DNA of 64,000 bases from Acidobacteriota bacterium (GCA_003170135.1 PMZR01000084.1:36674-100673), one strand, 5' to 3'; positions 35,005-56,877 are shown, numbered from the stretch's first letter. Notes: generated from the letters alone by a model not told the origin. A program made the numbers and translations.

Positions 35005-35022
35005 ACCCCTCCGCCCGCCGCC

Positions 35023-35742: not shown

Positions 35743-35785
35743 GGACGCCCCCACGCAAACGAGGTGACAGCCCGTCTGGCAGCCG

Positions 35786-36193
35786 TCAGCGCGCCACAGC
35801 GGTCACAACGGTCCTGACGTCGAACTGCGGCGGCGCCTCGAGATGTTTCTTCACGGCGCACTGCCCCGCTGCGCGCACCAGGGCGTCGTGGTACCTTTCC
35901 GGGAACGAGGGCGGCACTTGGATGTCCAACGCAATCTTCGCAACCATGCCGGTGCGCGGATCCGTCGCCATCCGCTGCGCGATCTGGATGCCCTCGGTCG
36001 AGAGGCCGCGTTGCCTGCAGAAGCCGAGGACGTAGATTCCGGCGCAGGTGCCAATAGACGCGAGGAACAGTGCAAACGGCGGCGGTGCCGATCCCTCGCC
36101 GCCCGCCTGCGGCGGCTGGTCTGTCGATATCGTGAACGCACCAAATTGTGCGTCGACGCGCGCTCCGCCCGGGAAGGTGATCGTCATGTCCAT
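35786..36193 (-). CDS. OsmC/Ohr-family protein
   Basis: 135 aa from MDMTITF. PPPFALFLASIGTCAGI and AAGQCAVKKHL carry the two conserved Cys. Confidence 0.7.
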   Translation of the reverse strand: MDMTITFPGGARVDAQFGAFTISTDQPPQAGGEGSAPPPFALFLASIGTCAGIYVLGFCRQRGLSTEGIQIAQRMATDPRTGMVAKIALDIQVPPSFPERYHDALVRAAGQCAVKKHLEAPPQFDVRTVVTAVAR

Positions 36194-36509
36194 GATGACC
36201 TCTGCGGTTATGTCGAGTCTCGCCAGGCAGCGATGCCGGGCCTCTTCCAGAGATGCAGGGGCGAGCGAAAGGTGACGGCATGACACCGGGATATCGGCAC
36301 AGATCGAGCCGGGCCCGGCCGGTTTACCGCGGCAAACTCAGCAGCAGCGATCGATGGGCCGCCTCGTGACGGGGCACCGCGGGCGTTCGCCCGCTCCTCC
36401 TGGATCATCGCTTCCGCGCGCAGGTACGCCACGATACAATATAGTCGTTTCCCGCGTTCCATCTGCCCCCCTTGGTTCTCCCAACATCTGTGCGCGGAGG
36501 GTTGCTGAC

Positions 36510-37445
36510 GTGAGTGTGGTGGTGTACTGCGCGATCTACACCGGGACGATCGCGTTCCTGGTCGCGTGCGTCGTCCGCGCGGCCAGGTACGCTCGCGCGC
36601 CCGTGCACCTGCGCTGGGAGCTGTACCCGGTCCCGCACGAGCAGCCCGCGCGCGTCCGGCACGGTGGCTCGTACTTCGAGGAGGTCGACTGGTGGAAGCG
36701 CCCGCGCCGCTTCAACCTGGCGGGCGAGTTGCGGTTCATGATTCCCGAGATGGTGTTTCTCAAGGGGCTGTGGGAATGGAACAGGACGCTGTGGTACCGG
36801 TCCTTCCCCTTCCACTTCGGACTCTACTTGCTGGCAGCTGCGGGCGTTCTGCTCGTGGCCACCGCCCTGGGCACGATGGCGGTGTCCCCGGTTTCGGGCA
36901 ACACGCTCATGATGGTGCTCCGCGGCTTGTATTGGACCGCCGGGATCGGCGGCGGCGTCCTTGCGTTCTGCGGCTCGCTCGCCCTGATGCACCGCCGCCT
37001 GACCGATAAGGTCCTTCGCATCTACCGCGCGCCCGCTGACATCTTCAACCTGGCGATCTTCGCGACGACGCTTGCCGTGGTCGGTGCCGGCTACCTCGCG
37101 GCCGGCCCGGCATTCCCGGGGGCGCTCGCGTTCACGCGGGCTCTTCTGCGCTTCGACACGAACGTCCACGTGCCCGGTCTCCTTGGCGCGGGCCTCGTTC
37201 TCGCGTCCGCGCTCGTCGCCTACATTCCCCTGACGCACATGTCCCACTTCATCGCCAAGTACTTCACCTACCACGCCGTCCGATGGGACGATCGCCCGAA
37301 CGTGGCGGGCGGGCGCCTGGAGCACCGGATCGCCGCGTGCCTGGCGATGCGGCCGACGTGGGCGGCGCGGCACGTCGGTGCGGACGGCACCAGGACGTGG
37401 GTGGATCTCGCCCTGGCCAATCCCTCCGAAGGGGCGAAGAAGTGA
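36510..37445 (+). CDS. NarI/DsrM-like membrane haem b subunit (second copy)
   Basis: GTG 36510 with GGAGGG upstream. Five to six TM segments. IPLTHMSHFIAKYFTYH corresponds to the DsrM PFSKLMH region. GTGA overlap with the next gene. Confidence 0.7.
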   Translation: MSVVVYCAIYTGTIAFLVACVVRAARYARAPVHLRWELYPVPHEQPARVRHGGSYFEEVDWWKRPRRFNLAGELRFMIPEMVFLKGLWEWNRTLWYRSFPFHFGLYLLAAAGVLLVATALGTMAVSPVSGNTLMMVLRGLYWTAGIGGGVLAFCGSLALMHRRLTDKVLRIYRAPADIFNLAIFATTLAVVGAGYLAAGPAFPGALAFTRALLRFDTNVHVPGLLGAGLVLASALVAYIPLTHMSHFIAKYFTYHAVRWDDRPNVAGGRLEHRIAACLAMRPTWAARHVGADGTRTWVDLALANPSEGAKK

Positions 37446-39049
37446 GCGACGAACCCAGGCTGTCCGACATGAGCCGGCGGGATCGGGAGCCGCTCGTCCA
37501 CGTCGAGAACAGCCGCCTGATGCCGCTCCCGCCGCCGCTCGACGACGCCGCGGCGGAACGGCCCTGGAAGCCGCTGTCCGAGCAGGCGCGCGAGCAGTAC
37601 GAGTGCGACCTCGACGACACCTGCGCCGTGAACATTCCACGCCCGGCCACCGAGGCTGACGAGCAGGATCTGGTGCGCCGGTTCCTGTCCGGCCTCGACA
37701 AGCTGTTCACGCCGGAGAACAACTGGACGTTCCTGCAGCCGCTGGTGCTCACGATGGAGCACTGCGCGAAGTGCCAGACGTGTGCGGACGCATGTCACGT
37801 GTTCGAGGCGAGCGGCCGCAACGAGATCTATCGCCCCACGTTTCGGTCCGAGGTGCTGCGCCGGCTCTATTTCAAGCACGTCAAGCACGGCGGGCTCGTG
37901 TCGGCGTGGCAGCACGGCGACGTCGATTTGAACTGGCCGCTGGTCGCCCGCCTGATCGAGCTGTCCTACCGCTGCAACCTGTGCCGCCGCTGCGCGCAGA
38001 CGTGCCCGATCGGCGCCGACAACGGCCTCGTGGCGCACGAGCTGCGCAAGCTGTTCAGCCAGGAAATGGGCATCGCGCCGAAGGAGCTCCACGACAGCGG
38101 CTCGATGCTGCAGCTCAAGATCGGGTCGTCGACCGGCATGAACGCGCAGGTGGTGAAGGACAACATCGACTTCATCGACGAGGAGACCTCCGAACGGACC
38201 GGCGTGACGGTCAAGACGCGCTGGGACGTGGAAGGCGCGGATGTCCTCCTGCTCCACAACGCCGGCGAGATCCTGGCGTGGCCCGAGAACCCGGGCGCCT
38301 TCGCCGTCATCCTGGACGCCGCGGGCATCTCCTGGACGCTCTCCTCGGATGTTGCCGGGTATGACGCCATCAACTACGGCTTGTGGTACGACGACACGCA
38401 GTTCGCGCGGGTCGCCATCAAGCACGCCGAGGCCGCGAAGAAGCTCAAGGTGAAGAAGATCGTGATCGGCGAGTGCGGCCACGCGCACAAGGCGCTGGCG
38501 GTGATTGCCGATCGCGTGCTGATTGGCGAGCTCAACATCCCGCGCGAGAGTGCGTTGACGCTGCTGCGCGACATCGTCGTCGGCGGCCGTCTGACGCTCG
38601 ACCCGTCGCGCAACGACTTCCCCGTGACGCTGCACGACCCGTGCAACCTTGTGCGCCTGATGGGCGTCGTCGAACCGCAGCGGGAGATCCTGCGCGCGAT
38701 CTGCCCGCAGTTCCGCGAGATGCATCCGCACGGCGTGGACAACTACTGCTGCGGCGGCGGAAGCGGGTTCGCGATCATGAGCGGGAACAACTTCCCCGAC
38801 TGGCGATTCCACGTGTCCGGACGCAAGAAGCTCCAGCAGGTGCTGAACGCGTTTGCCGACTGTCTCGACCCGTCGGTGCCGAAGTACCTCTGCGCCCCGT
38901 GCAGCAACTGCAAGGGCCAGCTGCGCGACCTCCTCAGTTACTACGGGCTGTGGGAGAAGAACCGTATCCTCTATGGCGGCCTGGTCGAGCTCATCGTGAA
39001 CGCGATGACCGACGTGAACCCCGGCTTCATCGAGTGGGAGTGGAGATGA
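37442..39049 (+). CDS. HdrD/DsrK-like Fe-S CCG-domain oxidoreductase (second copy)
   Basis: CAKCQTCADACH and CNLCRRCAQTCP clusters. ECGHAHK, HDPCNLVR, YCCGGGSG and CAPCSNCKG motifs. Start is GTG 37442 or ATG 37469. Confidence 0.8.
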   Translation: MSDEPRLSDMSRRDREPLVHVENSRLMPLPPPLDDAAAERPWKPLSEQAREQYECDLDDTCAVNIPRPATEADEQDLVRRFLSGLDKLFTPENNWTFLQPLVLTMEHCAKCQTCADACHVFEASGRNEIYRPTFRSEVLRRLYFKHVKHGGLVSAWQHGDVDLNWPLVARLIELSYRCNLCRRCAQTCPIGADNGLVAHELRKLFSQEMGIAPKELHDSGSMLQLKIGSSTGMNAQVVKDNIDFIDEETSERTGVTVKTRWDVEGADVLLLHNAGEILAWPENPGAFAVILDAAGISWTLSSDVAGYDAINYGLWYDDTQFARVAIKHAEAAKKLKVKKIVIGECGHAHKALAVIADRVLIGELNIPRESALTLLRDIVVGGRLTLDPSRNDFPVTLHDPCNLVRLMGVVEPQREILRAICPQFREMHPHGVDNYCCGGGSGFAIMSGNNFPDWRFHVSGRKKLQQVLNAFADCLDPSVPKYLCAPCSNCKGQLRDLLSYYGLWEKNRILYGGLVELIVNAMTDVNPGFIEWEWR

Positions 39050-39050
39050 A

Positions 39051-39099
39051 GTGCGAGGTGCGCGGTGCGCAGTGCGGGGTGCCGGGTGCCGGGTGCGGG
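39051..39099. repeat. Tandem heptanucleotide array, GTGCSNG x7
   Basis: gtgcgag gtgcgcg gtgcgca gtgcggg gtgccgg gtgccgg gtgcggg, directly abutting the left end of the IS. Confidence 0.95.
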
Positions 39100-39102: not shown

Positions 39103-40443
39103 TAGTCTAAAGACATAGGTAACACTTCTGTCCAGAGACATCGGTAACACTGGGGTATCCGAGGAGGAGCCCCAGATGCCGTGGCAACCGGTGTCGACCA
39201 TGGACCAGAAGACCCAGTTCGTTCAGGACTACTACCGCGAGATGTTTCCCACGATGACTGAGTTGTGCGAGTACTACGGAATCGCGCGCAAAACCGGGTA
39301 CAAGTTCATCCATCAGTTCGAGGCCCACGGCCGCGCCGGTCTGGCGGAGAAGTCGCGGCGCCCGCACGGCTGCCCCTGGGCGACGCCAGACGACCAGGTC
39401 GCGCGCATCGTCGGGCTGCGTGACCGTCATCCGAGTTGGGGCGCCCGCAAGCTGCTGGCGGTTCTCCAGAACCGGCATCCCACGACGGAATGGGCCGCGC
39501 CGAGCACCGTGTCGCTTCTTCTGAAACGGCAGGGTCTCGTCGGCAGTCGGCGTCGCCGGGCCCCTGTCCCCGCGCGCCTCCGAGTGCCGCATGTCGTGGC
39601 CGCGGCGCCCAACCACGTCTGGACCGCCGATTTCAAGGGCCACTTCCGCACCGGCGACCGTCGATACTGCTATCCGCTGACCGTCATGGACCGCTTCAGC
39701 CGCTACCTGCTCGACTGCCACGGCATGCTCTCGCCCAACGAGCTCGAGACCCGCCGGCGCGTCGAGCACCTGTTCCGGGTCTTTGGGTTGCCGACCGTCG
39801 TGCGCACCGATAACGGCGCGCCCTTCGCCAGCACCGGGCTGGCGGGCTTGTCGCACCTCTCAGTCTGGTGGTTGCGACTGGGCATCGTGCTCGACCCGAT
39901 CCGGCCCGGACATCCCGAAGAAAACGCGAGCCATGAGCGGTTTCATCGCACGCTCAAGCGTGAGACGGCCCAGCCGCCCGCCGGGTCCTGCTCGGCCCAG
40001 CAGCGGCGCTTTAACACGTTCGGCCCGGAGTACAACCACGTGCGGCCGCACGAAGCGCTCGGGCAGATCCCGCCTGGTGACGTCTACGAGCCGTCCTGTC
40101 GGTCCATGCCGGCCGCGCTGCCGCCACTCGAGTATCCGGGGCACTTCGAAGTCCGACGCGTGGGACCGAGCGGCTGCTTTTCCTGGAGCCACGTGCATGT
40201 CTTCGTGAGCCACGTCCTGCGCGGAGAACACCTCGGTTTCGAAGAGATCGATGATGGCCTGTGGGCGGTCTACTTCTGCGCGCAGCGACTCGCGCGTTTC
40301 GACGAACGCACCAAGCGGATTCTGCCCACGCATGAACGTCGTACAACCCCGAGCAACGCCGCGTCCGCGGGTCCCCAGGGCTGATGAGGGCCCCGCTCCC
40401 GCGGCTCGTGCTTCGCTCGATCTGTTACCGATGTCCTTGACTG
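39103..40443 (+). mobile_element. IS481-family insertion sequence (~1.34 kb)
   Basis: Imperfect terminal inverted repeats: tagtctaaagacataggtaacac (left) versus the reverse complement of tctgttaccgatgtccttgactg (right), about 18/23 matching. Single DDE transposase ORF. Flanked on both sides by GTGCSGG heptamers. Confidence 0.8.
39176..40384 (+). CDS. IS481-family DDE transposase (rve integrase core)
   Basis: 402 aa with GAGGAGGAG upstream. N-terminal HTH. WTADFKG, VRTDNGAPF and HPEENASHERFHRTLK (D, D, E region). Confidence 0.88.
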   Translation: MPWQPVSTMDQKTQFVQDYYREMFPTMTELCEYYGIARKTGYKFIHQFEAHGRAGLAEKSRRPHGCPWATPDDQVARIVGLRDRHPSWGARKLLAVLQNRHPTTEWAAPSTVSLLLKRQGLVGSRRRRAPVPARLRVPHVVAAAPNHVWTADFKGHFRTGDRRYCYPLTVMDRFSRYLLDCHGMLSPNELETRRRVEHLFRVFGLPTVVRTDNGAPFASTGLAGLSHLSVWWLRLGIVLDPIRPGHPEENASHERFHRTLKRETAQPPAGSCSAQQRRFNTFGPEYNHVRPHEALGQIPPGDVYEPSCRSMPAALPPLEYPGHFEVRRVGPSGCFSWSHVHVFVSHVLRGEHLGFEEIDDGLWAVYFCAQRLARFDERTKRILPTHERRTTPSNAASAGPQG

Positions 40444-40478
40444 TTCCCGGGGTGCCGTGCCGGGCGCCGCGGGCTGAC

Positions 40479-40500
40479 GTGCCGGGTGCGGGGTGCGGTG
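40479..40500. repeat. Heptanucleotide array remnant, GTGCSGG x3, right of the IS
   Basis: gtgccgg gtgcggg gtgcggt. Confidence 0.8.
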
Positions 40501-40516
40501 AAACGGGGGATCTGCG

Positions 40517-40891
40517 ATGGCGAAGAAGATTCTGATCGTCGACGACGAGCCCGACGTGGTCACGTACCTGTCGGCAGTCCTCAACGACAACGGCTTCGAG
40601 GCGATCGGCGCCTCGAATGGCGCGGAAGCGCTGGAGAGGGTGCGCCGGGACCATCCCAGCCTGATCACGCTCGATATCACGATGCCCGAGATGAGCGGCG
40701 TGAAAGCCTACCGGACGCTGAAGGATGATGCCGCGCTGAAGGCGATCCCGGTCGTCATCGTCACCGGCATGGCGCACGACTTCAAGCGGTTCATCTCGAC
40801 GCGCGAGCACGTCCCGCCGCCGGACGGCTACCTGGAGAAGCCGGTCAACCCGGAGGATCTCCTGGCGGAAGTGAAGAGGCTGCTGGCTTGA
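40517..40891 (+). CDS. Stand-alone response-regulator receiver (CheY-like)
   Basis: 124 aa. ILIVDDEPD, phospho-acceptor LITLDITMP, and GYLEKPV Lys. Confidence 0.85.
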   Translation: MAKKILIVDDEPDVVTYLSAVLNDNGFEAIGASNGAEALERVRRDHPSLITLDITMPEMSGVKAYRTLKDDAALKAIPVVIVTGMAHDFKRFISTREHVPPPDGYLEKPVNPEDLLAEVKRLLA

Positions 40892-42284
40892 CAGGCGGAA
40901 TCCGGACCCTGAACCGGGTGCCTACGTGCAAGGTCGAGTCGATCGTGATGGTCCCGCCATGCGCCGCCGCGATTTTCTGCGCGACGAACAGCCCGAGGCC
41001 GGTGCCCTCGGTGCCCTTCGACGAGAAGAACGCACTGAAGGCCCGCTCGCGGGTCTCCTGGTCCATGCCAATCCCGTTGTCCACCACCTCGAACAGCACG
41101 TCGTCGCCGTCCCGGTGAACGTCGAGCGAGACGTGGTGATCCGGCCGGGCGGCATCCGTCCGGCACGCATCGAGGGAGTTCTCGACGAGGTTTACCAGCA
41201 GCGAATGCAGCGCGCGCGGGTCCGCGTCGAGCGGCGCAAGCGCTTCCTCCACCCGCGCCTCGAGCGTGACGCCGAGGTCCACGGCCCGCCGCGATAGCAC
41301 CTCGATGACGTCGCGCGCGAGCGCGCCCGGATCGATCGCCTCGCGCTGCAACTCCCGGTCCTTGGCGTAATAGAGCACGTTGAGCACCATGCTCCGGATG
41401 CGTTCGATGTTGCGCCGGACCATCTCCCAGCCGCGCCGCACCCGCTCCGAGTCGTCCTTTCCGAAGCCGGTCTCGACCAGGTAAATCCCGCCGTTGAGGC
41501 CGTTGAGCAGGCCCTTGATACCGTGCGAGATCGATCCGACGACCAGGCCCAGCGAGGCGAGCTGCGACTCGAGCCGGCGGAGCTCGGTGATGTTGGTGGA
41601 CATCTCCATCACCGACGTGATCTCGCCGTTCGGGTCGCGGATGGCTGCCGTGTATACGAGCACGTTGATGTGACGGCCGTCCCGCGCGGTCACGATTTCC
41701 TCGCTGACGTGGCTCTCGCCGTCCTCGAAGGTCATCGAGACGGGGCACATCAGGCATGGCTCGGTGCGGTGCTTGTAGACTTCGTAGCAGTGCCCTTCGA
41801 GCGCGTCTCCGAAGTCGTCGCGGAAGCGGCGGTTGGCTTCGAGGATCCGGCGATTCCGGTCCTGCACCGAGATGTAGCAGGGCACTTCCTCGAACAGCGT
41901 CCGGCACCGCAGCTGCAGCCGCTTGATCTCGGTGATGTCGGTGGCGGTCTTGACGACCGACACAATCGCGCCGGAGGCGTCCCGGACGGGCGACGTCCGG
42001 ATCAGCACGCGCATCTCCGTCCCGTCCCGTCGTCTCAGGATCTCCTCGCGAGTACGCGGCTCCCCGTCTCGAAACGTGTCCCCGACCGGGCATTTCGCGC
42101 AGGGAACCGTGCCGTGCTTGTACACGCGGTAGCAGAGGCCGCCGGCCTCGGCTCCGAAGTCTTCGGCGAATCGCTGGTTGACAGACAACAGGCGATGCGC
42201 GCGGTCCTGGACCGACACGTACCCGGGGAGCGCGTCGAAGTACCTGCGGTAGACGTCCTCCACGACGATCTCCTCCGGCAACAC
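40845..42284 (-). CDS. Cytoplasmic sensor histidine kinase with two Cys-motif PAS domains
   Basis: 479 aa. Two PAS repeats each with C-x11-C-x2-C (CYRVYKHGTVPCAKC; CYEVYKHRTEPCLMC). H-box GSISHGIKGLLNG. N, G1 and G2 boxes (LVENSLDA, DNGIGM, GTGLGL). Confidence 0.8.
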   Translation of the reverse strand: MLPEEIVVEDVYRRYFDALPGYVSVQDRAHRLLSVNQRFAEDFGAEAGGLCYRVYKHGTVPCAKCPVGDTFRDGEPRTREEILRRRDGTEMRVLIRTSPVRDASGAIVSVVKTATDITEIKRLQLRCRTLFEEVPCYISVQDRNRRILEANRRFRDDFGDALEGHCYEVYKHRTEPCLMCPVSMTFEDGESHVSEEIVTARDGRHINVLVYTAAIRDPNGEITSVMEMSTNITELRRLESQLASLGLVVGSISHGIKGLLNGLNGGIYLVETGFGKDDSERVRRGWEMVRRNIERIRSMVLNVLYYAKDRELQREAIDPGALARDVIEVLSRRAVDLGVTLEARVEEALAPLDADPRALHSLLVNLVENSLDACRTDAARPDHHVSLDVHRDGDDVLFEVVDNGIGMDQETRERAFSAFFSSKGTEGTGLGLFVAQKIAAAHGGTITIDSTLHVGTRFRVRIPPVKPAASSLPPGDPPG

Positions 42285-42285
42285 G

Positions 42286-44022
42286 TCACCTCTCGCGGCG
42301 TACGGTCTCCAGGATCTTCCTGGCGGTCAGGACGAGATCCTGCGCCGAAACGGGTTTGCCCAGGTAGCCCTCGGGCGGCGCCACCTCGCGCTCGTAGATC
42401 AGGCGACGAAGCTCGGGCCGGCCGGTGATGATGCACACGGCGGTGCCGGCAGACGCCGGGTCCTTGCGGATCGCCTCGAACACGTCACCGCCGTCGCGGC
42501 CCGGCATGGAGATGTCGAGCGTCACCAGATCGAACCGCTCCTGCCGCAGTCGCGCGATGGCCTCGTCGCCGCTTCCGGCCGTGACGGTATCCGCGCCCTG
42601 ATCGGCCAGCGCCGTGGTGAGATAAACGCGCGTATCCTCCTCGTCGTCCACGACCAGGATGCGGTATCCCGCAAGCGGCGCAGCCGGTTCGGCCGGCCCG
42701 ACGGCCGGCGCCTTCGGCTCGACGACCAGCGCCTGCGCGACGAGGTTCACGAGCTGCGTCACCTTCATGTCCAGCTTGTAGTGCTTGATGAGGTCGGTCA
42801 GGCCATCCACGCAATTGTGGCAGGAGGTCACGACGTATTTCGCCCCGGTCGCCGCCAGTTGGTCGGCCTTGACCTTCGCCGATTTCAGCCGGCGCGGCGC
42901 GTACTCGGACATCGACATCGCGCCGCCGCCGCCAGTGCAGCAGTAGTTCTCGGCGCGGTTCGGGTGCATCTCGCAAAAGTCGCCGGCGACGACCGCCCGC
43001 AGCAGCTGCCGCGGTTCCTCGTAGAGGCCGCAGCTTCTCGCGTTGTTGCAGGAATCGTGGAACGTGTAGGACGAGGCGTTCTTCGAAGGATCGACCTTGA
43101 TCCGCCCTTCGCGCAGGTAGCGCAGCATCGTCACGACCGAGCTCTCCATCTCGAACTCGATGTCCTCGCCGGCCCAGTTCGGTCCCTCGCAGCGCGTCGA
43201 ACGGTACCCGTGCCCGCACTCCGACATCACGAGCTTCCGCCCGCCCAATGTCCGTACCGCCTCGTACACGCGACCCGCGACGACGCCGCCCAGCGCATCG
43301 TCGCCCGAGAAGAGGCCGAAATTCGTCATGTCCCAGCCTTCGCTCGGCATCGTCCAACTCTCGCCGGCGGCATAGAAGATGCGCGCCGCGTCGCTGATCG
43401 TCCGCGGGTCGTACTTCACCTCGCGCGGGTTGATCGTATAGACGCTGTTGCAGTCGGGCCGATCGATCGGGATGCGTGCGGCGGGCGTGCCGAACTCCTC
43501 CTCGAGTTCGTCGGATAGCCACTCGAGCGTCTCGATGTAGTCCTCTTTCAGGACGCCCATCTGGTTGCCGATTTCCCACTGGTCCTTGCTGACCGCCGCC
43601 ACGCCCTCGGGCATGACGCCGACCGACACGAGCAGACCGCGCACCATCCGGTTGACGACCGCGAAGTCGACGCCCATCGGGCAGTTGATCGTGCAGCGGC
43701 GGCAGTTCGTGCACTTGCCGAACGCGATGTCCTTCAACTCCTCGAGATCGTCATCGGTCCAGACGCTGCCGGCCCCGACCCACCAGGGCAGGACGCGCCC
43801 CGTCCAGTCGACGTGGCGCTTGAAGATCTTCCGGATCCGATCGGCCTTGTAAGCCGGCGCATAGGTGGGGTCGTCCGGATTGGTCAGCGCGTAGTGACAG
43901 GCATCGGTGCAGAGGCCGCAGTGCACGCAGGCGACCAGCGAGCCGACGATCTGTCGCGTGAGTTTCTGCGGGAGCCGCTCGACGACCTTCGCCGCCTTGT
44001 GCGAACGTGTGTCCGGGGTCAT
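42286..44022 (-). CDS. HdrD/DsrK-like Fe-S CCG-domain oxidoreductase fused to a C-terminal response-regulator receiver domain
   Basis: 578 aa. CVHCGLCTDACH and CTNCRRCTINCP clusters. ECGHGYR, HDSCNNARSC, YCCTGGGG and SCHNCVDG motifs. Then a linker and REC: ILVVDDEED, LVTLDISMP, GYLGKPV. Confidence 0.8.
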   Translation of the reverse strand: MTPDTRSHKAAKVVERLPQKLTRQIVGSLVACVHCGLCTDACHYALTNPDDPTYAPAYKADRIRKIFKRHVDWTGRVLPWWVGAGSVWTDDDLEELKDIAFGKCTNCRRCTINCPMGVDFAVVNRMVRGLLVSVGVMPEGVAAVSKDQWEIGNQMGVLKEDYIETLEWLSDELEEEFGTPAARIPIDRPDCNSVYTINPREVKYDPRTISDAARIFYAAGESWTMPSEGWDMTNFGLFSGDDALGGVVAGRVYEAVRTLGGRKLVMSECGHGYRSTRCEGPNWAGEDIEFEMESSVVTMLRYLREGRIKVDPSKNASSYTFHDSCNNARSCGLYEEPRQLLRAVVAGDFCEMHPNRAENYCCTGGGGAMSMSEYAPRRLKSAKVKADQLAATGAKYVVTSCHNCVDGLTDLIKHYKLDMKVTQLVNLVAQALVVEPKAPAVGPAEPAAPLAGYRILVVDDEEDTRVYLTTALADQGADTVTAGSGDEAIARLRQERFDLVTLDISMPGRDGGDVFEAIRKDPASAGTAVCIITGRPELRRLIYEREVAPPEGYLGKPVSAQDLVLTARKILETVRRER

Positions 44023-44717
44023 ACTCGCCCTCCTCTGCCCTGCGCGCCAGCTCCCGTTTCAAGCGGGAACACGCCCCGGTAGCCCAGGGTGCGTCCCAGC
44101 CAGTAACGCGTGAACGGGTAGTAGAGGTAGTGCGAGATCTTGCTGAACGGCACGTAGATGAGAAAGAACGCGGTCAGGAAGAAGTAGGCAACCAGATGCA
44201 GCTCGCCGCCGGCGATGTTGCCCGGCGCCGCCAGCACGCCCGCCGCGAACCAGATCGTCAGCAGCGCCAGGGAGAAGAAATCGTCGGGCGAACTGATCCG
44301 CCGGACGACGGGATCGGTGATGCGGCGGACCATCCGCAGGACGCCGACCGCGACGCCGGCGCCGATCGTGATCTGCAAGAGCCTCACCAGCACGACCGAT
44401 CGCAGCAGCCCCGGACCGTACGGGATGATGAACGAGAGCGCGATGTTGGCGGTCACGGCCAGGTGGAACACCACGAACTGCGCGTAGAACCCGGGGCGCC
44501 TGCGCGTGCTCTCCAGCGTCCAGGGCATGGCAATCGCCGCCAGGGAATACGCGGCTCCCTTGGCGGCGTTGGTTCGGACGCCCGCCGTCGTCGGCTGCCG
44601 ATCCCGCCCGCGCTTGAAACTGAACAACCAGACGAGCCGCGCCACGTAGACACAGGCCATGATCGCCAGCGCCAGTTCCTGCAGGCGGTGCTCGGCGAGG
44701 TGGAGAAGGTCAGTCAT
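44019..44717 (-). CDS. NarI/DsrM-like membrane subunit (third copy)
   Basis: 232 aa from MTDLLHL, 5 TM. VPFSKISHYLYYP matches the DsrM PFSKLMH motif. ATGA overlap with the HdrD-REC gene. Confidence 0.65.
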   Translation of the reverse strand: MTDLLHLAEHRLQELALAIMACVYVARLVWLFSFKRGRDRQPTTAGVRTNAAKGAAYSLAAIAMPWTLESTRRRPGFYAQFVVFHLAVTANIALSFIIPYGPGLLRSVVLVRLLQITIGAGVAVGVLRMVRRITDPVVRRISSPDDFFSLALLTIWFAAGVLAAPGNIAGGELHLVAYFFLTAFFLIYVPFSKISHYLYYPFTRYWLGRTLGYRGVFPLETGAGAQGRGGRV

Positions 44718-44875
44718 AGGTCCAAGGTCCGATCGTGACGGTCCACGGTTCATAGTCAACAGTTGACCGTTCAATTCAGACAGCCGTTGCGCCGGCGTAG
44801 CGGTCAACTGTCGAGTGTCAACTATCGAACGGTCGGAACATCCGACGTCCGACCGTTCACCGTTGACCGGTCAGT
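44718..44875. repeat. Degenerate inverted heptanucleotide arrays (GTTGACC-type followed by GGTCAAC-type)
   Basis: aggtcca aggtccg ... cggtcca cggttca tagtcaa cagttga ccgttca, then ggtcaac tgtcgag tgtcaac tatcgaa cggtcgg ... gaccgtt caccgtt gaccggt. Confidence 0.75.
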
Positions 44876-45462
44876 TCGCGGGTGAACGGCGCGACCTCGT
44901 GCGTGTCGCGCACGCAGATCGTGAGCTCCCGCAGCGGGCTGCCCGCTGACAGGTGGCGCCGCAGTTGCGCCATGGTCACGCGCGCGCAGACTTCGAGGCC
45001 GACCCCGTAGAAGCCGACGCCCAGCGCCGGCAGCGCCACCCGCGTCAGGCCGTGTTCGTCTGCGGCGCGCAGCACGGTTTGCACCGCGTCGGCCAGCCTG
45101 CGTTCCAGATCCGCTTCCTGGAAGCGCGGGCCGACCACATGGATGATGTGTTTCGCCTTCAGCTTGCCACCCGTCGTCACGACCGCCTGGCCGGCGGCGA
45201 GCGGCGCCAGCGTCTTCAGTTCCGCCTGGATCGTCGGACCGCCCCGCACGGCGATCGCAGTGCCGACGCCGGCACCGAGGACCAGGTCGGGACGAGCGTC
45301 GAAGACGAACGCATCGACGTCGAGCATCGTGATGTCGTCTTTCACGATTCGGACCGCGCAGGTCTCGATGGTCGTTTCGATCACGTCTGTGTCCGTGTGG
45401 GAGACGAAGGTCCGGGAGGACCGCGGATGGCCGCACCGCGTGGCGCGACCCTGGGGCGACAT
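44857..45462 (-). CDS. Macro-domain (ADP-ribose-binding/deacetylase-like) protein
   Basis: IVKDDITMLDVDAFVFDA, GGPTIQAE and TTGGKLKAKHIIHVVGP motifs. Start is ATG 45462 or GTG 45384. Confidence 0.7.
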   Translation of the reverse strand: MSPQGRATRCGHPRSSRTFVSHTDTDVIETTIETCAVRIVKDDITMLDVDAFVFDARPDLVLGAGVGTAIAVRGGPTIQAELKTLAPLAAGQAVVTTGGKLKAKHIIHVVGPRFQEADLERRLADAVQTVLRAADEHGLTRVALPALGVGFYGVGLEVCARVTMAQLRRHLSAGSPLRELTICVRDTHEVAPFTRELTGQR

Positions 45463-45801
45463 GATTTTACTATGGCTGGGGGAATTTGCGGCGGCGGGGG
45501 CGACGAAACGGCCGAGGTCGCCCGGGTCGCTGTTGCACCTTTCGGCGTCAGGCGATTTCGATCGCCCGCTGTGCCGCACAATTCGACAACACCCGAGCGC
45601 ACGCGTCCGTGCACGCCCTCCGCGCACCCTCTGCACGCTTGACAGGAATCCGCCGGCCTCGTACCCTGCAGTGAGCGTCGCGCCCCTCCGGGTGCCGACC
45701 CGCACAAGAATCGCCTGTCGCCGAGGGCAGGCGAGCGCGGATCGGGGTCCTCACCGGCAGTTCCCCCCACGATTGGCGTCTTTGCGCGGAAGGCGGCCGG
45801 A

Positions 45802-45821
45802 CTTGTGAATTTTTTCACAAG
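45802..45821. promoter_or_regulatory. CRP/FNR-type palindrome CTTGTGA-ATTTTT-TCACAAG
   Basis: Perfect 7-bp arms with TGTGA-N6-TCACA core. 24 nt upstream of the hypA GTG. Confidence 0.5.
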
Positions 45822-45844
45822 TAGGCGTCTCCCGGCGGAAGGCC

Positions 45845-46183
45845 GTGCACGAACTGAGCATCGCCCAGTCGCTCGTCGAATCGGTTCGCACCGAGGCGAC
45901 CGCCCATCCCGGCGCCCGCGTCGTGCGGATCGGCCTGCGCGTCGGTGATCTGTCGGGCGTCGAACCCGACGCGCTGAAATTCTCCTTCGACGTCATCGTG
46001 CGGGGTACCGATCTCGGGCAGGCCACGCTCGACGTCGAGCGCGTGCCCCTGCGCCAGCGCTGCGAGCGCTGCGCGCGTGACTTCCCGGTGGTCGAGTACG
46101 CCTTGTTGTGCCCGGACTGCGGCGCGCCCACCCGGACGGTCGGCGGCGACGAGCTGCAGATGACATATCTGGAACTGGAGTAA
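45845..46183 (+). CDS. hypA: Hydrogenase nickel-insertion protein HypA
   Basis: 112 aa with (M)HELSIAQSLV start. Zn site CERC...CPDCG. Confidence 0.9.
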   Translation: MHELSIAQSLVESVRTEATAHPGARVVRIGLRVGDLSGVEPDALKFSFDVIVRGTDLGQATLDVERVPLRQRCERCARDFPVVEYALLCPDCGAPTRTVGGDELQMTYLELE

Positions 46184-46185
46184 CG

Positions 46186-46863
46186 ATGGAACGGGTGGAG
46201 CTGCAGCAGAGCGTGTTGAAGGAGAACGACCGCATCGCGGCCGAGCTGCGCGCGGAATTCGGCCGGCGCGGCATCGTCTGCCTGAACGTGATCGCCTCGC
46301 CGGGCGCCGGCAAGACGAGCGTGCTCGAACACACGCTGCAGGCCTTCGTCGGCGGCCGCCACAAGGTCGCCGTGCTCACCGGCGACATTCAGACCGAGCG
46401 CGACGCCGCCCGCCTGGCGCGGTTCGGCTTCCCCGCTCGGCAGATCACCACGGGCGGGATCTGCCACCTGGATGCCGCGATGGTGAAGCGCGCGCTGGCC
46501 GACGTGTCGCTCGACGGCGTGGACCTGCTGTTCATCGAGAACGTCGGCAACCTGGTGTGCCCGGCCGCCTACGATCTGGGCGAGGTCGCCAAGGTCGTGA
46601 TCCTGAGCGTCGCCGAGGGTGACGACAAGCCGCTGAAGTACCCGTCGATCTTCAGCCGCGCGAAGTTGATGTTGCTGCACAAGGTCGACCTGCTGCCCTA
46701 TACGCGGTTCGACCTCGCCGCGGCGAAAGCGGATGCCAGACGCGTGAACCCGGCGATCGAGATCATCGAGACGAGCTGTGTCGGCGCCCCGGGACTCCAC
46801 GGATGGCTCGAGTGGGTTGAACGGGCCACGGGCCGCGGCAGCGTCGCTCGCACGACCGTCTGA
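46186..46863 (+). CDS. hypB: Hydrogenase nickel-insertion GTPase HypB
   Basis: 225 aa. SPGAGKTS P-loop, CHLDA and ENVGNLVCP motifs. Confidence 0.9.
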   Translation: MERVELQQSVLKENDRIAAELRAEFGRRGIVCLNVIASPGAGKTSVLEHTLQAFVGGRHKVAVLTGDIQTERDAARLARFGFPARQITTGGICHLDAAMVKRALADVSLDGVDLLFIENVGNLVCPAAYDLGEVAKVVILSVAEGDDKPLKYPSIFSRAKLMLLHKVDLLPYTRFDLAAAKADARRVNPAIEIIETSCVGAPGLHGWLEWVERATGRGSVARTTV

Positions 46864-46900
46864 CCGCGTTGCATCGAACACGACTATGAGATGGCCGATT

Positions 46901-46921
46901 CCCCGGGGCCGCGCCTCGGGG
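46901..46921 (+). terminator. Candidate GC-rich hairpin after hypB
   Basis: ccccggggc-cgc-gcctcgggg (9-bp stem with one G-U pair). No U-tract follows, so it is weak. Confidence 0.2.
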
Positions 46922-47033
46922 CTTCATCGTCCGCGTTTCCTTCCCGCCGACGCACACCCGACGCGCGCCGGCACCCTCCCGTTATCCACCGACAGCAGCA
47001 GCCGCCGAGTCCGAGCGATCACGGAGTGCCCGT

Positions 47034-47501
47034 ATGCCTGAAGCGCCAGCGGCCCCGACGCCATTCGAACCGCGAATCGTCGCCTTCTTCTGTAACTGGT
47101 GCACCTACACCGCCGCCGACCTGGCCGGCATCTCGCGGATGAAGTATGCGCCGAACGTGCGCGTCATCCGGGTGATGTGCTCCGGGCGCGTCGACCCGCA
47201 GTTCGTCCTCGATGCGTTTGCCAGGGGCGCCGACGGTGTTCTCATCGGCGGCTGTCACCCCGGCGACTGCCATTACCAGAACGGCAACTACAAGGCGCTG
47301 CGCCGCATGCGCCTGCTGCGCCGCATGCTCCAGCAGATGGGCGTCGAGGAGGCGCGGTTCCGCCTGGAGTGGATCTCGGCGTCGGAGGGCGACAAGGTGC
47401 GGACGGTCATCAACGAGATGGTCGACCAGGTGCGCGCGCTCGGGCCGCTGCGGCTCGCCGCGCCGCCCGAGACGTTCGGAGAGGAGGTGGCAGCCATATG
47501 A
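47034..47501 (+). CDS. mvhD: MvhD (methyl-viologen-reducing hydrogenase delta subunit, [2Fe-2S])
   Basis: 155 aa. IVAFFCNWCTY, RVMCSGRVD and IGGCHPGDCHY motifs. Confidence 0.88.
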   Translation: MPEAPAAPTPFEPRIVAFFCNWCTYTAADLAGISRMKYAPNVRVIRVMCSGRVDPQFVLDAFARGADGVLIGGCHPGDCHYQNGNYKALRRMRLLRRMLQQMGVEEARFRLEWISASEGDKVRTVINEMVDQVRALGPLRLAAPPETFGEEVAAI

Positions 47502-48499
47502 CGGCAACCCCGGGCGCAGCGGCCGAGCGGCCGAAAGTCGCGTTCTACTGGTGCGCCTCCTGTGGCGGCTGCGAGGAAACGGTCGTCGATCTGCACGAGG
47601 CGATCCTCGACGTGGTCGCGGCGGTGGACATTGTCTTCTGGCCGGTGGCCCTCGACTTCAAGCGCCGGGACGTCGAGGCGCTGCCCGACGGAGCCGTCGC
47701 GGTCACCTTTCTCAACGGCGCCATTCGCACGACCGAGCACGAGGAGATGGCGCACCTGCTGCGGCGCAAGTCGCAGCTGCTCGTGGCGTTCGGTGCGTGC
47801 GCGCAGATGGGCGGCATCCCCGGGCTGGCGAACCTGTGGACGCGCGAGGCGATCTTCGACACGGTGTACGCACACACGCCGAGCACGGAGAACCCGCAGC
47901 ACGTCGCGCCGCAGCGCAGCTGCCATGAGGACGGCCGCACCGTGTCGCTCCCGGGCTTCTTCGACACCGTTCGATCGCTCGAGCAGATCGTCAGCGTCGA
48001 TTACACGATCCCCGGGTGTCCGCCCACGCCGCAGCTGCTGGCGGACGCCGTGCACGCCGTGCTGTCGGGCACGCTGCCGCCCAGGGGCAGCGTCCTGGCG
48101 CCCGATCGGGCGATGTGCGACACCTGCCCGCGCAGGGACACCCGCCCGGCCGAGATGCTCGTCGGCGAGTTTCATCGGCCCCACGAGATCCTCATCGACG
48201 AGGACAAGTGCCTGCTCGCGCAGGGCCTGTTGTGCATGGGGCCGGCCACCCGCGGTGGCTGCGACTCGCGCTGCATCAAGGGCAACATGCCCTGCACCGG
48301 CTGCTTCGGGCCGACCAGCCGCGTGCGTGACTTCGGGGCGAAGGCGTCGTCGGCGATCGCCTCGGTGCTCGACGCGACGGCGGAGCCCGAGATCGATCGC
48401 CAGCTGGACGCGCTCGCCGACCCGATGGGGACGTTCTATCGCTACAGCCTGCCGGCATCGCTCATCGCGCGGAAGCGAATGGCCGGCCAGGGCAAGTAA
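47498..48499 (+). CDS. mvhG: [NiFe] hydrogenase small subunit, group 3c (MvhG-type)
   Basis: 333 aa with ATGA overlap with mvhD. WCASCGGCEE, GCPP and distal-cluster Cys (CMGPATRGGC, CTGCFGP). Confidence 0.85.
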   Translation: MTATPGAAAERPKVAFYWCASCGGCEETVVDLHEAILDVVAAVDIVFWPVALDFKRRDVEALPDGAVAVTFLNGAIRTTEHEEMAHLLRRKSQLLVAFGACAQMGGIPGLANLWTREAIFDTVYAHTPSTENPQHVAPQRSCHEDGRTVSLPGFFDTVRSLEQIVSVDYTIPGCPPTPQLLADAVHAVLSGTLPPRGSVLAPDRAMCDTCPRRDTRPAEMLVGEFHRPHEILIDEDKCLLAQGLLCMGPATRGGCDSRCIKGNMPCTGCFGPTSRVRDFGAKASSAIASVLDATAEPEIDRQLDALADPMGTFYRYSLPASLIARKRMAGQGK

Positions 48500-48523
48500 G
48501 GCGCGTCGCGAACAGGGAAACGT

Positions 48524-50047: not shown

Positions 50048-50077
50048 TCGACCGAGAGTGGGAGCCATCGAGGACGC

Positions 50078-50150
50078 GAGCAGGACTGAAGTCCTGCTCC
50101 ACGATCTGGTGGCACAGGGTGATCTCGTGGCACAGGGCTTCAGCCCTGTG
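50078..50150. repeat. Two REP-like hairpins (TGAA and TTCA loops)
   Basis: gagcaggac-tgaa-gtcctgctc (50078-50099, perfect 9 bp) and cacagggc-ttca-gccctgtg (50131-50150, perfect 8 bp). Confidence 0.9.
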
Positions 50151-50156
50151 AAGACA

Positions 50157-54292: not shown

Positions 54293-54521
54293 GGCGTGCG
54301 GGTCGGCTGCGAGGCCGAGCTTGCGGCCGGCTTCGCAGCCGACCATCGCTCTCGGCCCACGCCCGCATCGCTCCGGCCTGTGCCCCGCCTGCCTCGGGCG
54401 GCCCGCATGTCCGGCCCGTTCCCGCCCGCCGCTGACCCTTCATGCCCGCCCGGGCTCCGTTTCACGATACAATGCGGTTCGGCTGCAAACTCGACAGTCC
54501 GACGGCAAGGGAGCGTGCGTT

Positions 54522-54938
54522 ATGGCGAAGATTCTCATGATCGACGACGATCCGGATTTCGTCACCGGAATCCGCATCCTGCTCGAATCGCGCGGTCACC
54601 AGTTCTTCACGGCATCCAACGGCGAAGCGGGATTGACGCGCGTCAAGGAGGTCCACCCCGACCTCATCCTGCTGGACGTGATGATGGACACGCGCACCGA
54701 AGGCTTCCACGTTTCGCTGCAGCTCCGCGATCGGTCGCCGGAGTCGCCATACGCCGCCTACCGCGACGTGCCGATCCTGATGCTCACCTCGATCCATCAG
54801 ACGACCCCGCTGCGGTTCGGGCCGGACGAGGAGTACCTGCCGGTGAACGCGCTGTTCGAGAAGTCGGTGCGGCTCGACGTGATCCTCGCAAAGATCGACG
54901 AGCTGCTTCAGGCGGCATCGCGACGGGCGCAGGTGTAA
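54522..54938 (+). CDS. Stand-alone response-regulator receiver
   Basis: 138 aa with AAGGGAG upstream. ILMIDDDPD and LILLDVMMD motifs. Confidence 0.8.
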   Translation: MAKILMIDDDPDFVTGIRILLESRGHQFFTASNGEAGLTRVKEVHPDLILLDVMMDTRTEGFHVSLQLRDRSPESPYAAYRDVPILMLTSIHQTTPLRFGPDEEYLPVNALFEKSVRLDVILAKIDELLQAASRRAQV

Positions 54939-55044: not shown

Positions 55045-56877
55045 ATGGCAACTGCAGGCGCCGCCCGCACAACCCAGGCTCCGGCCAGGTCCCTGACCGA
55101 ACAGGAGCTGATCAACAGCCTCGGCTGGTTGATCCGGATGCGATGGTTCGCCGGGGCGGCGGTTCTTGCCGCCACAGCGATCAGCGCGCATGTCGTTCGC
55201 CTGCCCGTCCCCGAACAGAACGCCTTCATCGTCGGCCTGACCATCTTCGCCTACAACTTCGCGTTCCATCTGGCGCTCGGCAGGCTCGATGCCTTCGGCC
55301 CGGACTTTCCCCGCGCCTGCCAGTGGTTTGCGCGCGTGCAGATCGGATTCGACTGGCTCGCGATGGCGGCACTCATCGCCCTCTCCGGGGGCATCGAGAG
55401 CCCCGCGATCGTGTTCTTCCTGTTCCACATCACGATCGCCTCGTTGCTGCTGCCGCACGACAAGGGATTCCTGTACGTGGCGCTCGCCCCGATCCTGGTG
55501 GCCGGCATCGCGCTGCTCGAACTGCGCGGCGTCATCCACCACGTGGCGCTGGTCAGCCCGCCCCGGTACCTGGACCACGTCTTCATCGCCGAGGTGCTCG
55601 TCTTCTTCACGTGCGCGTCGTACGTGATGGCCTACCTCGCCATGTCGATCTCGCGCCGGCTTCGACGGCGCGAGACCGAGATCGCGGGACTGTACGAAAG
55701 CGTGCGCGCGACGACGTCCACGCTCGATCTGGCCGGGGTCCTCGATCGCCTGTCCGAGGCGACCGCGCACGTGCTCGGCTGCCAGGGCGCCGCCATCCGG
55801 CTGCTCGATCGCAGCGGCAGCCAGCTCGTCGCCGCGGCGAGCTACGGCTTGAGCGAAGCGTTCATGAGCGGCGCGCTGGAGTTGAGCCGGTCGTCGATCG
55901 ATCGCGAGGTGCTCACCACCGGCAACGTGCTGTTCATCGACGCGCTGACGGACCCCCGCATCGTCTACCCGGAGGCGAACCGGCGGGAGGGCATCCGGGC
56001 CGTGCTCGTCGCGCCGCTCGTGGGCAAGGCGGGCGCCATCGGCGTACTGCGCGCCTACGGCGGCGAGGGGCATGCGTTCAACCGCGACGACGCGACGTTT
56101 TTGGCCGCGATCGCGGCGCAGGGCGCCATCGCGATCGAGAACGCGCAGGCCTACGCCATGCTGGCGAGCCTCGATCGGGACAAGTCGCAGTTCGTTCGCA
56201 CGGTGACGCACGAACTCCGATCGCCGATCCAGGTGTCCCACAACCTGCTCACGCTGCTCGAGCAGGGATACGTCGGCGCGCTGGCTTCCGAGCAGGCGGA
56301 CCTCGTGACCCGGGCGCGGCGGCGGATCGAGTTCCTGCAGACGCTGGTGGACGACCTGCTGGACCTTGCGGCGGGCAAGGCCGACGTGCATCCCCGCGCC
56401 GAGCGGTGCGCCGTCCCACTGGCGCCGCTCATTCGCGATGTCTGCGCGAGATTCGCCGCAGCCGCCCTTTCGAGAGGCCTGCAGTTGTGCGTCGATGCGG
56501 ACGACGAACAGATCGTCGTCTGGGGAGACCCGCGCGAGCTCGATCGGATCGTCAACAACGTCGTTGGCAATGCCATGCGGTATACGCCGCAGGGCGAGGT
56601 CCAGGTGCACCTGGCGCGCGAAGCCGATGTCGCGCGGATCACGGTTGCCGACACCGGCATCGGGATCCCGGAAGACGCGCTGCCTCGACTGTTCGAGGAG
56701 TTCTTCCGCGCTCCCAATGCCAAGGCCATCGAGGAACGCGGCACCGGCCTGGGCCTCGCCATCGCCAGGGCGCTCGTCGAACGCTACCACGGCACCATCG
56801 AGGTGCAGAGCCGCGAAGGCCACGGGACGACGTTCACCATCAGGCTGCCGCTGGTGTATCCTTCCGACGGCGCGTGA
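55045..56877 (+). CDS. Membrane-bound GAF-domain sensor histidine kinase
   Basis: 610 aa. About 5 N-terminal TM helices, a GAF region, H-box VTHELRSPI, and N, G1 and G2 boxes (VGNAMRYTP, DTGIGI, GTGLGLAI). Confidence 0.85.
   Translation: MATAGAARTTQAPARSLTEQELINSLGWLIRMRWFAGAAVLAATAISAHVVRLPVPEQNAFIVGLTIFAYNFAFHLALGRLDAFGPDFPRACQWFARVQIGFDWLAMAALIALSGGIESPAIVFFLFHITIASLLLPHDKGFLYVALAPILVAGIALLELRGVIHHVALVSPPRYLDHVFIAEVLVFFTCASYVMAYLAMSISRRLRRRETEIAGLYESVRATTSTLDLAGVLDRLSEATAHVLGCQGAAIRLLDRSGSQLVAAASYGLSEAFMSGALELSRSSIDREVLTTGNVLFIDALTDPRIVYPEANRREGIRAVLVAPLVGKAGAIGVLRAYGGEGHAFNRDDATFLAAIAAQGAIAIENAQAYAMLASLDRDKSQFVRTVTHELRSPIQVSHNLLTLLEQGYVGALASEQADLVTRARRRIEFLQTLVDDLLDLAAGKADVHPRAERCAVPLAPLIRDVCARFAAAALSRGLQLCVDADDEQIVVWGDPRELDRIVNNVVGNAMRYTPQGEVQVHLAREADVARITVADTGIGIPEDALPRLFEEFFRAPNAKAIEERGTGLGLAIARALVERYHGTIEVQSREGHGTTFTIRLPLVYPSDGA

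Follow-up and report, generated by a model that had tools for sequence, protein, structure and literature searches.

How is a two-component signal put to use when its receiver domain is built into an iron-sulfur (Fe-S) subunit of a membrane redox module? This question is raised by an operon in a stretch of 64,000 nucleotides (nt) from an Acidobacteriota bacterium (GCA_003170135.1 PMZR01000084.1:36674-100673); we refer to the whole stretch as the window and count coordinates from its start. The operon encodes an Fe-S protein of the HdrD type that ends in a receiver domain (hereafter the fusion), together with a membrane partner and a PAS histidine kinase. Known kinds of system, namely a two-component system and an HdrD/NarI-type redox module, are joined here in a combination not yet characterised. 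Our tentative answer, to which we give somewhat less than an even chance, is a two-component system with the membrane redox module, and not a transcription factor, as output. The genes under study are:

44857..45384, minus strand: macro-domain protein of 175 amino acids (aa), first gene of the operon (Pfam Macro, 86 bits)
44019..44717, minus strand: HmcE/TmcC-like cytochrome-b-type membrane protein, 232 aa, with five hydrophobic segments (NCBIfam; 80/81 loci)
42286..44022, minus strand: the fusion, an HmcF/TmcB/DsrK-type Fe-S/CCG protein with C-terminal receiver, 578 aa (Pfam, NCBIfam)
40845..42284, minus strand: soluble PAS-PAS-DHp-CA kinase, 479 aa, GTG start (Pfam, AlphaFold, Foldseek)
40517..40891, plus strand: free single-domain receiver, 124 aa (Response_reg, 2.2e-22)

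The positions of four of these open reading frames (ORFs), as given in a preliminary description of the locus, were borne out on the sequence, together with the ATGA overlap between membrane gene and fusion (44019-44022) and the 1-nt gap between fusion and kinase (42285); the membrane protein starts with the ATG at 44717, as it does in gene calls and homologues. The three-gene operon drawn at that time was too small, as the conserved unit comprises five genes and the macro gene had been overlooked. To define this unit, a genome scan was run over species-representative genomes and neighbouring genes were grouped by tblastn and all-against-all clustering; synteny counts refer to the best 80 of 375 genomes with a relative (L005-L084), and counts out of 81 to the window plus these 80 loci. 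The conserved array runs in one direction from the macro gene (72 loci) via the membrane protein (80), the fusion (81) and the PAS kinase (71) to a free receiver of ~126 aa (63), which in most genomes comes after the kinase on the same strand. Median gaps are 13.5 nt between macro and membrane gene, 31 nt between membrane gene and fusion and 12 nt between fusion and kinase. The fusion is under strong selection and syntenic with the kinase in every lineage looked at, and divergent lineages beyond the 80 loci (L085, L086) keep a core of membrane protein, fusion and kinase with an Rrf2 gene or a receiver alongside. In the conserved five-gene core of the 80 loci and the window, a DNA-binding or other output domain was not found, and genes for the HmcABCD, TmcA/D and DsrJOP subunits are not among the conserved operon neighbours.

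The fusion itself is widespread. With the fusion as query against 5.8 billion proteins, we obtained 2924 matches at an expectation value (E) of <=1e-10. The best 120 of these are 72-89% identical, 564-595 aa long and all composed of CCG, Fer4 and Response_reg domains, although their database names merely read 'response regulator' or 'Fe-S oxidoreductase/CheY-like'. A divergent fused lineage (P0121, 51% identical) leads another continuum of fused proteins, and a second search again returned full-length fusions as the best 120 matches, save one shorter protein (P0442). The nearest unfused relatives show 42-44% identity. Relatives were found in 375 species genomes, and the best 80 genomic matches cover residues ~1-578 in a single frame with 69-75% identity. 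They stem from at least 10 phyla, including Syntrophales/Thermodesulfobacteriota, Myxococcota, Zixibacteria, Acidobacteriota, Planctomycetota, Calditrichota, Ignavibacteria, Gemmatimonadota, Elusimicrobia and Aminicenantes, and most of the hosts are not known to reduce sulfate. On 23 contigs (JGI, ENA and Logan assemblies), a 578-aa protein of identical sequence is encoded amid the same neighbours. The concern that the fusion might be unique to this contig and carry degenerate residues can be set aside, since architecture and synteny are widespread and the catalytic cysteines and the phospho-acceptor are invariant. The architecture sits in the databases unnamed, and we share the earlier view of it as uncharacterised: we found no paper that describes a receiver-fused HdrD/DsrK-type protein or joins HdrD, HmcF, TmcB or DsrMK to a fused receiver.

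Domains were assigned with Pfam and NCBIfam profiles, and "below cut-off" denotes a score under the curated NCBIfam equivalog threshold. Conservation was read from 81 sequences for the cysteines of the fusion, 43 for the residues of its receiver, 67 for the kinase, 76 for the membrane protein and 72 for the macro protein. On the one 578-aa ORF, Pfam places Fer4_8 at residues 30-118, CCG at 319-404 and Response_reg at 455-565, and the parts of the protein map as follows:

43669..43935, minus strand: two CX2CX2CX3C ferredoxin-type motifs (C32/35/38/42 and C104/107/110/114), invariant (Fer4_8, 7.5e-11)
42811..43068, minus strand: CCG domain (C325, C331, C361-C362-T, C401, C404), cysteines invariant (Pfam CCG, 5e-13)
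42673..42726, minus strand: Pro/Ala-rich linker between redox and receiver domains, with alignment columns that vary in length and sequence
42307..42672, minus strand: receiver domain (Response_reg, 3.9e-18, 66 bits against a cut-off of 30)

Upstream of the CCG domain lie C269 and H271, of which C269 is likewise invariant. Throughout the fusion family 'CCT' stands in place of 'CCG' (Gly to Thr); the full set of cysteines is found only in the C-terminal CCG domain, where the CC pair is kept. The fusion encodes two cubane-cluster motifs, an intact CCG cluster site and a canonical receiver on a flexible linker, for which AlphaFold gives a predicted local distance difference test (pLDDT) score of <50 at residues 437-446. 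Since the receiver chemistry and all cluster cysteines are co-conserved across at least 10 phyla at ~70% identity, both halves of the protein appear to be functional. At the CCG site, the sequence may fit thiol/disulfide chemistry, as in Hdr and DsrK, or mere electron transfer, as in EtfD. In an unfused HmcF-like protein (P0127, 44% identity), the C-terminal place of the receiver is taken by a weakly scoring DsrC/TusE-like domain (E 2e-11, below cut-off), which hints at a site where partner or substrate domains can become fused.

The redox half was assigned to the DsrMK kind before. Its best NCBIfam scores are to HmcF (4e-98, 329 bits against a cut-off of 750) and TmcB (2.5e-89, 300 against 735), followed by DsrK (230 bits against 400), so by profile comparison the fusion is a relative and not an equivalog of these proteins. 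As the scores rank HmcF/HmcE and TmcB/TmcC above DsrK/DsrM, the module is closer to HmcEF/TmcBC than to DsrMK. The general type was thus recognised correctly, whereas we replaced the strict DsrMK assignment by 'HmcEF/TmcBC-like, below all equivalog cut-offs'. With DsrMK, the minimal module of DsrMKJOP, and with HdrDE it shares the combination of a membrane cytochrome b and a cytoplasmic protein with two ferredoxin motifs and a CCG noncubane-cluster site, including the CGH and CC...CxxC residues common to the family. No DsrC or DsrAB context was seen.

In the fused receiver, D459, D460, D503 and K556 do not vary, T533 is the same in all of 12 homologues and in at least 90% of 43, and the motif GY(L) aligns with Y106 of CheY, the aromatic switch residue; the receiver had therefore rightly been described as complete. 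Within the fusion family it shows ~61% identity. It is 39-43% identical to the free receiver, each being ~25% identical to CheY, and of the window's three receiver domains the free one lies nearest to it. Both have in common an alpha1 segment (DDEPDxxT(F/Y)LxxxLEDNG) and an unusual alpha4-beta5 segment (...ITG..E(L/F)(R/K)xFIxxRxxVPPPEGYLxKP...). The latter had been noticed before as a shared insert; the segment is indeed shared and unusual, but at +1 residue (fused) and +3 residues (free) relative to CheY it reads in the alignment as a divergent Pro-rich stretch and not as a large insert. In other systems, alpha1 is the helix recognised by the kinase. Because this helix is common to both receivers, one kinase partner for the two, as had been proposed, is plausible from sequence. 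Among NCBIfam receiver models, both match the DVU0259 family best, with 104.6 bits (free) and 56.8 bits (fused); neither reaches the cut-off of 160, so DVU0259 is the closest model only.

The candidate kinase has its own conserved sites in two N-terminal PAS domains:

41928..42251, minus strand: PAS1 with the triad C51-x10-C62-x2-C65, invariant in 67/67
41574..41903, minus strand: PAS2 with C136, C166, C177 and C180, invariant in 67/67, and H172 (66/67)

Pfam finds the two PAS domains and HATPase_c (88 bits) and gives zero HisKA matches in the kinase. The AlphaFold model (pLDDT 89) shows a canonical PAS-PAS-DHp-CA architecture with DHp helices at 232-305, and Foldseek retrieves HK853-type kinases (target-normalised template modelling (TM) score ~0.8) and otherwise generic kinases and PAS proteins. 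The phospho-acceptor H254 and C374 are invariant, in keeping with the soluble two-PAS histidine kinase described at the outset. Of the cysteine motif proposed then, the conservation and the difference from NreB stood, whereas the spacing is not C-x11-C-x2-C; PAS2 has the same C-x10-C-x2-C spacing as PAS1 (C166/C177/C180), with C136 as an extra fourth cysteine. The divergent single-PAS kinases of L085 and L086 retain the four-cysteine PAS2 only.

In the PAS domain of OrpR from Desulfovibrio vulgaris, C52/C61/C65 bind a redox-sensing [4Fe-4S] cluster (PMC8359166), and in NreB the motif CX2CX11C holds a [2Fe-2S] cluster (Bacillus licheniformis) and CX2CX11CX2C a [4Fe-4S] cluster (PMC13478379). 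The cysteines of the kinase occupy the same region of the cytoplasmic PAS fold, at positions nearly equal to those of OrpR (51/62/65 against 52/61/65, a comparison of numbering and not of sequences). The spacing differs from both C-x8-C-x3-C in OrpR and C-x2-C-x11-C(-x2-C) in NreB, and an NreB-type motif was rejected on this ground. A sequence search of the PDB with the PAS region gave zero matches.

The membrane protein matches HmcE (1.8e-14, 54 bits against a cut-off of 275) and TmcC (7e-13) over their full length and below cut-off; the HmcE alignment pairs protein residues 45-241 with positions 12-211 of the 226 in the profile. It also aligns with the DsrM-like paralogue encoded nearby (hhalign probability 95%), including the motif PFSKISH. 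H85 and H196 are its only invariant histidines, next to H6 and H10 with 76-79% conservation and an unconserved H174; in this the protein differs from the neighbouring paralogue, in which seven histidines are invariant or nearly so (18 homologues). In the NarI paradigm, four histidines ligate two b hemes. Given five hydrophobic segments and only two invariant histidines, a single-heme wire similar to EtfD is likely, and the protein is a cytochrome-b anchor with five transmembrane helices and probably one heme.

By sequence, EtfD from mycobacteria (PDB 9ojn) was the sole solved structure retrieved (E 7e-10), and it is also the best match by fold (Foldseek E 2.5e-11, TM 0.48). It has five transmembrane helices, one heme b on two histidines and two cubane clusters; two CCG-domain clusters wire a cytoplasmic donor to menaquinone, and a long flexible C-terminal extension follows (PMC13083937). 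The CCG clusters of EtfD are shielded and non-catalytic, with Thr for one Cys in the first CC pair (PMC13083937). The CCG region of the fusion aligns with the second CCG domain of EtfD, and most ligands of the first one are missing in the fusion. Besides, EtfD is a single polypeptide without receiver and without kinase.

The macro gene lies upstream of the membrane gene on the same strand in 72/81 loci. Its product is a clear member of the family (cut-off 22 bits) with PDB matches to PARP14 macro domains, TTHA0132 and MacroD1. The catalytic residues of MacroD are the Asn of NAAN and the Asp of GGGVD; at these positions the protein has F-D-A-R and GAGVG (F28/R31 and G41 in the catalytic places, G41 invariant), and judged by these residues it is probably an ADP-ribose-type binding module and not a hydrolase.

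A second redox module, nearer to true DsrMK, is encoded on the opposite strand next to the operon:

36516..37445, plus strand: DsrM/NarI-like membrane partner (Pfam Nitrate_red_gam, 5.9e-5)
37469..39049, plus strand: DsrK-like HdrD-type Fe-S/CCG protein, 526 aa, without fused receiver (NCBIfam DsrK 2e-95, 320 bits against a cut-off of 400)
39109..40438, plus strand: IS481-type insertion element (transposase 39176..40384; Pfam rve, rve_3, LZ_Tnp_IS481)

The insertion element is bounded by terminal inverted repeats (39109-39124 and 40423-40438) and parts the dsrK-like gene from the free receiver, whereas relatives free of it have 20-77 nt between the two genes. In L012, L024, L029 and L032, a receiver with 68-73% identity to the free receiver of the window is the next gene after the dsrK-like gene and has the same orientation. 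From this synteny, the free receiver of the window is the tail gene of a dsrM-like/dsrK-like operon that was severed by IS481, and the element probably uncouples it from its operon promoter. Its convergent position had thus been recorded correctly, while its membership lies with the second redox operon. Kinase and free receiver overlap by 47 nt (40845-40891), and the overlapping kinase tail (residues 468-478) is unconserved and predicted to be disordered. GC-rich short repeats of the GTGCSGG type flank the element at 39051-39093 and 40448-40507, in the former dsrK-like/receiver intergenic region.

A dsrK-like homologue (59-80% identity) occurs within 6 kb of the fusion in 20/80 loci, and the DsrMK-like pair in these loci always adjoins a free receiver. 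In L028 and L061, both the kinase and the dsrK-like gene are followed by a receiver of their own, which makes two per locus, and in L024 the dsrK-like gene, receiver, macro, membrane gene, fusion and kinase all run in one direction. In one HdrD-type subunit the receiver is built in, and for the paralogue it is encoded by the next gene, so that in the window and in L012, L024, L029 and L032 each receiver is attached to an HdrD-type subunit, either physically or genetically. By an argument of the Rosetta-stone type, this arrangement speaks for receivers that act on or with HdrD-type subunits. As the conserved core is free of any other output domain and the receivers are attached to HdrD-type subunits, the redox modules are the only visible outputs.

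We therefore tentatively propose the following scheme, in which we infer all steps that go past domain content, conservation and synteny. The PAS domains would hold an Fe-S cluster, as in OrpR and NreB, or else another metal or thiol switch, through which the kinase could report cytoplasmic redox potential, O2 or sulfide. From the kinase, phosphoryl groups would pass to the tethered receiver and to its free paralogue or paralogues. The specialised alpha4-beta5 face of the receiver would then open or close electron flow, with the quinone pool and heme b at one end and, at the CCG cluster, a cytoplasmic partner of the thiol/disulfide or redox-protein type at the other, and the free receiver would gate the neighbouring DsrMK-like module in trans. 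The macro protein may add a nucleotide input of the ADP-ribose type or act as a partner. Enzyme-fused receivers such as CheB, PleD and RpfG generally control the attached enzyme by phosphorylation, and to our knowledge a respiratory-type Fe-S/CCG subunit has not been described as the output of a response regulator. With a little more reserve than for the scheme itself, we consider it possible that the fusion represents a new response-regulator class, with the catalytic Fe-S/CCG subunit of a quinone-linked oxidoreductase as output and an Fe-S-PAS kinase as switch, and with a free receiver that acts likewise on a DsrMK-like complex in trans.

This output role is favoured by the tight gene coupling and by the apparent sensor sites of the kinase, which are invariant and, by analogy, lie in the PAS region that holds the clusters of OrpR and NreB; genetic support for phosphotransfer comes from the kinase gene, which adjoins that of the fusion in 71 loci at a median distance of 12 nt. 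Several points weigh against it. The AlphaFold model of the fusion, in which the linker is disordered and alpha4 has low confidence, is moderate (pLDDT 72, predicted TM score 0.58) and lends no support to a receiver/enzyme interface. About five long loci (e.g. L020, L035, L052, L069 and L072) have the kinase and no free receiver within 6 kb, the DsrMK-like module is nearby in just a quarter of loci, and all 80 best genome matches are metagenome-assembled genomes, with no cultured isolate among them. In Desulfovibrio, deletion of rrf1 and rrf2 altered hmc expression, which is a transcriptional effect. The Cys-rich PAS domains, finally, could equally be substrates of the CCG site. On balance, a regulatory role of the receiver towards the redox module is slightly favoured.

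The last of these points leads to the main alternative, in which the redox module is the sensory input; we give it a somewhat smaller chance than the scheme above. Here an HmcEF-like complex would equilibrate with the quinone or thiol pool and inform the kinase, the fused receiver would dock and feed back, and the free receiver would be the output. The route might possibly be a reduction or oxidation of the PAS cysteines by the CCG cluster, which would be an enzymatic counterpart to the way in which ArcB or RegB sense quinones. The likeness to ArcB and RegB/PrrB is conceptual, in that respiratory state is linked to phosphotransfer; in both ArcB and RegB, the quinone sensor is the kinase. The CCG-type clusters of Hdr and DsrK act on thiol/disulfide substrates, as is textbook knowledge and as discussed for Hdr (PMC13083937), and the kinase offers seven invariant PAS cysteines, is soluble and is strictly co-inherited with the fusion. 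The flexible tether fits docking, too. Single receivers of the DivK type can be allosteric kinase regulators, and the best NCBIfam model is named 'DVU0259_DivK'; in most loci, moreover, the free receiver follows the kinase like a classic output. Yet in the window and in similar loci the sole free receiver belongs to the other redox operon, so that an independent output is not visible, and several genomes are without a nearby free receiver. Besides, the PAS cysteine pattern resembles the self-contained sensors OrpR and NreB, which need no partner enzyme.

Much less probable, in our estimate, is that the receivers work through a DNA-binding partner of the Rrf2, sigma-54 or MerR type, encoded nearby or elsewhere, while the fusion localises or titrates signalling. 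This idea draws on the closest precedent of the locus, hmcEF-rrf1-rrf2 of D. vulgaris Hildenborough (Desulfovibrio/Nitratidesulfovibrio), where a NarI-type cytochrome b is likewise paired with a cytoplasmic HdrD/GlpC-type Fe-S protein and where rrf1, a single-domain receiver, and the regulator rrf2 follow hmcF; the deletion effect mentioned above fits well with it. An Rrf2-family gene also accompanies 20/80 loci, directly upstream of the macro gene, and adjoins the kinase in L085 (8396-8830). A sigma-54 activator with an N-terminal LMWPc domain (low-molecular-weight phosphatase/ArsC-like) and a PAS domain is found in 15/80 loci and a MerR-like gene upstream in 12/80. However, such regulators occur in a minority of loci, differ by lineage and are all free of a receiver domain, and none adjoins the operon in the window. 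A sigma-54 promoter scan (TGGCAC-N5-TTGCW, <=2 mismatches) gave 36 matches against 23.5 expected, none of them upstream of the operon. A transcriptional role would also leave the covalent receiver-Fe-S fusion, conserved at the family identity given above, unexplained. The operon differs from hmc in that the HmcABCD subunits (periplasmic cytochrome, NrfD-type subunit) are absent, the receiver is fused and not separate, and a dedicated PAS kinase and a macro gene belong to the unit. A similar picture holds for Tmc: the TmcB and TmcC models score nearly as well as the Hmc models, whereas TmcA cytochrome c3 and TmcD are missing here and the described Tmc is without fusion and kinase. DVU0259 presumably lies a few genes from tmcA-D (DVU0263-0266).

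It is slightly less probable still that the fused receiver is passive, serving as a phosphate sink, a structural appendage or a non-regulatory docking site on an EtfD-like wire to menaquinone. EtfD, with its flexible C-terminal extension, is after all the closest solved structure, the membrane subunit has its five segments and two histidines, and the DsrC/TusE-like domain of P0127 occupies the receiver position. On the other hand, the fully conserved phosphorylation residues and the strictly linked, coupled kinase argue for a consequential phosphotransfer, and a sink requires a competing output, of which none is evident in many loci. That a frameshift or mis-assembly had joined two genes, a caveat raised earlier for ~42650-42700, is ruled out by the independent assemblies (23 contigs) and by full-length homologues in a single frame, with the best 120 matches fused in both searches save P0442 and the 80 best genomic matches uninterrupted.

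Some observations concern the surroundings of the operon. Across phyla, the fusion is more conserved than its partners (69-75% identity, against ~50% for the kinase, ~57% for the membrane subunit, ~46% for the macro protein and ~52% for the free receiver), an excess that, as far as identities can tell, indicates either an Fe-S subunit under unusually strong constraint or a horizontal spread of recent date. The macro-membrane intergenic region of the window is long (139 nt), and 44739-44869 is dense in GGTCAAC/GTTGACC repeats, including the palindrome GTCAAC-A-GTTGAC (44755-44767) and inverted arms of 31 nt (44739-44769 and 44801-44831). We rejected a conserved operator in this gap: the repeats are window-specific and the gap is <25 nt in most other genomes. 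A scan for sigma-70 promoters and terminators over 40300-45900 gave zero sites, and an Rfam scan of the whole window gave zero matches.

Upstream of the DsrMK-like operon, the minus strand (32509-36286) encodes a sulfite exporter of the TauE/SafE type, a SufS-like cysteine desulfurase and an OsmC-like protein, which are possibly related to sulfur or thiol metabolism. The genes that come after the operon in L086 (4332-7069) encode a receiver-like protein, a member of the DsrE family and a rhodanese-containing pyridine-nucleotide-disulfide oxidoreductase, which is a sulfur-trafficking context. On the other side of the operon in the window, a hydrogenase run on the plus strand (45845-56877) comprises, in order, HypA, HypB, an MvhD/VhuD-like gene, VhuG-like and VhuA-like hydrogenase subunits and a maturation protease, followed by HdrC-like, HdrB-like (two CCG domains) and HdrA-like genes. 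Its last two genes encode a lone receiver (~54520..54938) and a membrane histidine kinase with a GAF domain (55045..56877). The lone receiver is of a different subfamily, and with it the window holds a third pairing of a single-domain receiver with an Hdr-type complex.

The control of bacterial electron-transport complexes is generally held to be transcriptional. A receiver on the catalytic subunit of a heme/Fe-S module, kept at ~70% identity along with its kinase in hundreds of uncultured species of anaerobic bacteria, points to a direct phospho-control of electron flow, or else to an enzymatic redox input to the kinase. If the proposed output role is true, respiratory-type electron transfer would be switched post-translationally, and receivers of the Rrf1/DVU0259 type, which stand beside Hmc and Tmc complexes, would obtain their first mechanistic role. 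The compact five-gene operon is a good candidate for heterologous reconstitution and offers a handle on the reaction partners of the cytoplasmic CCG subunits of Hmc and Tmc, on the role of Rrf1-type receivers and on what the Cys-rich PAS domains of anaerobes sense.

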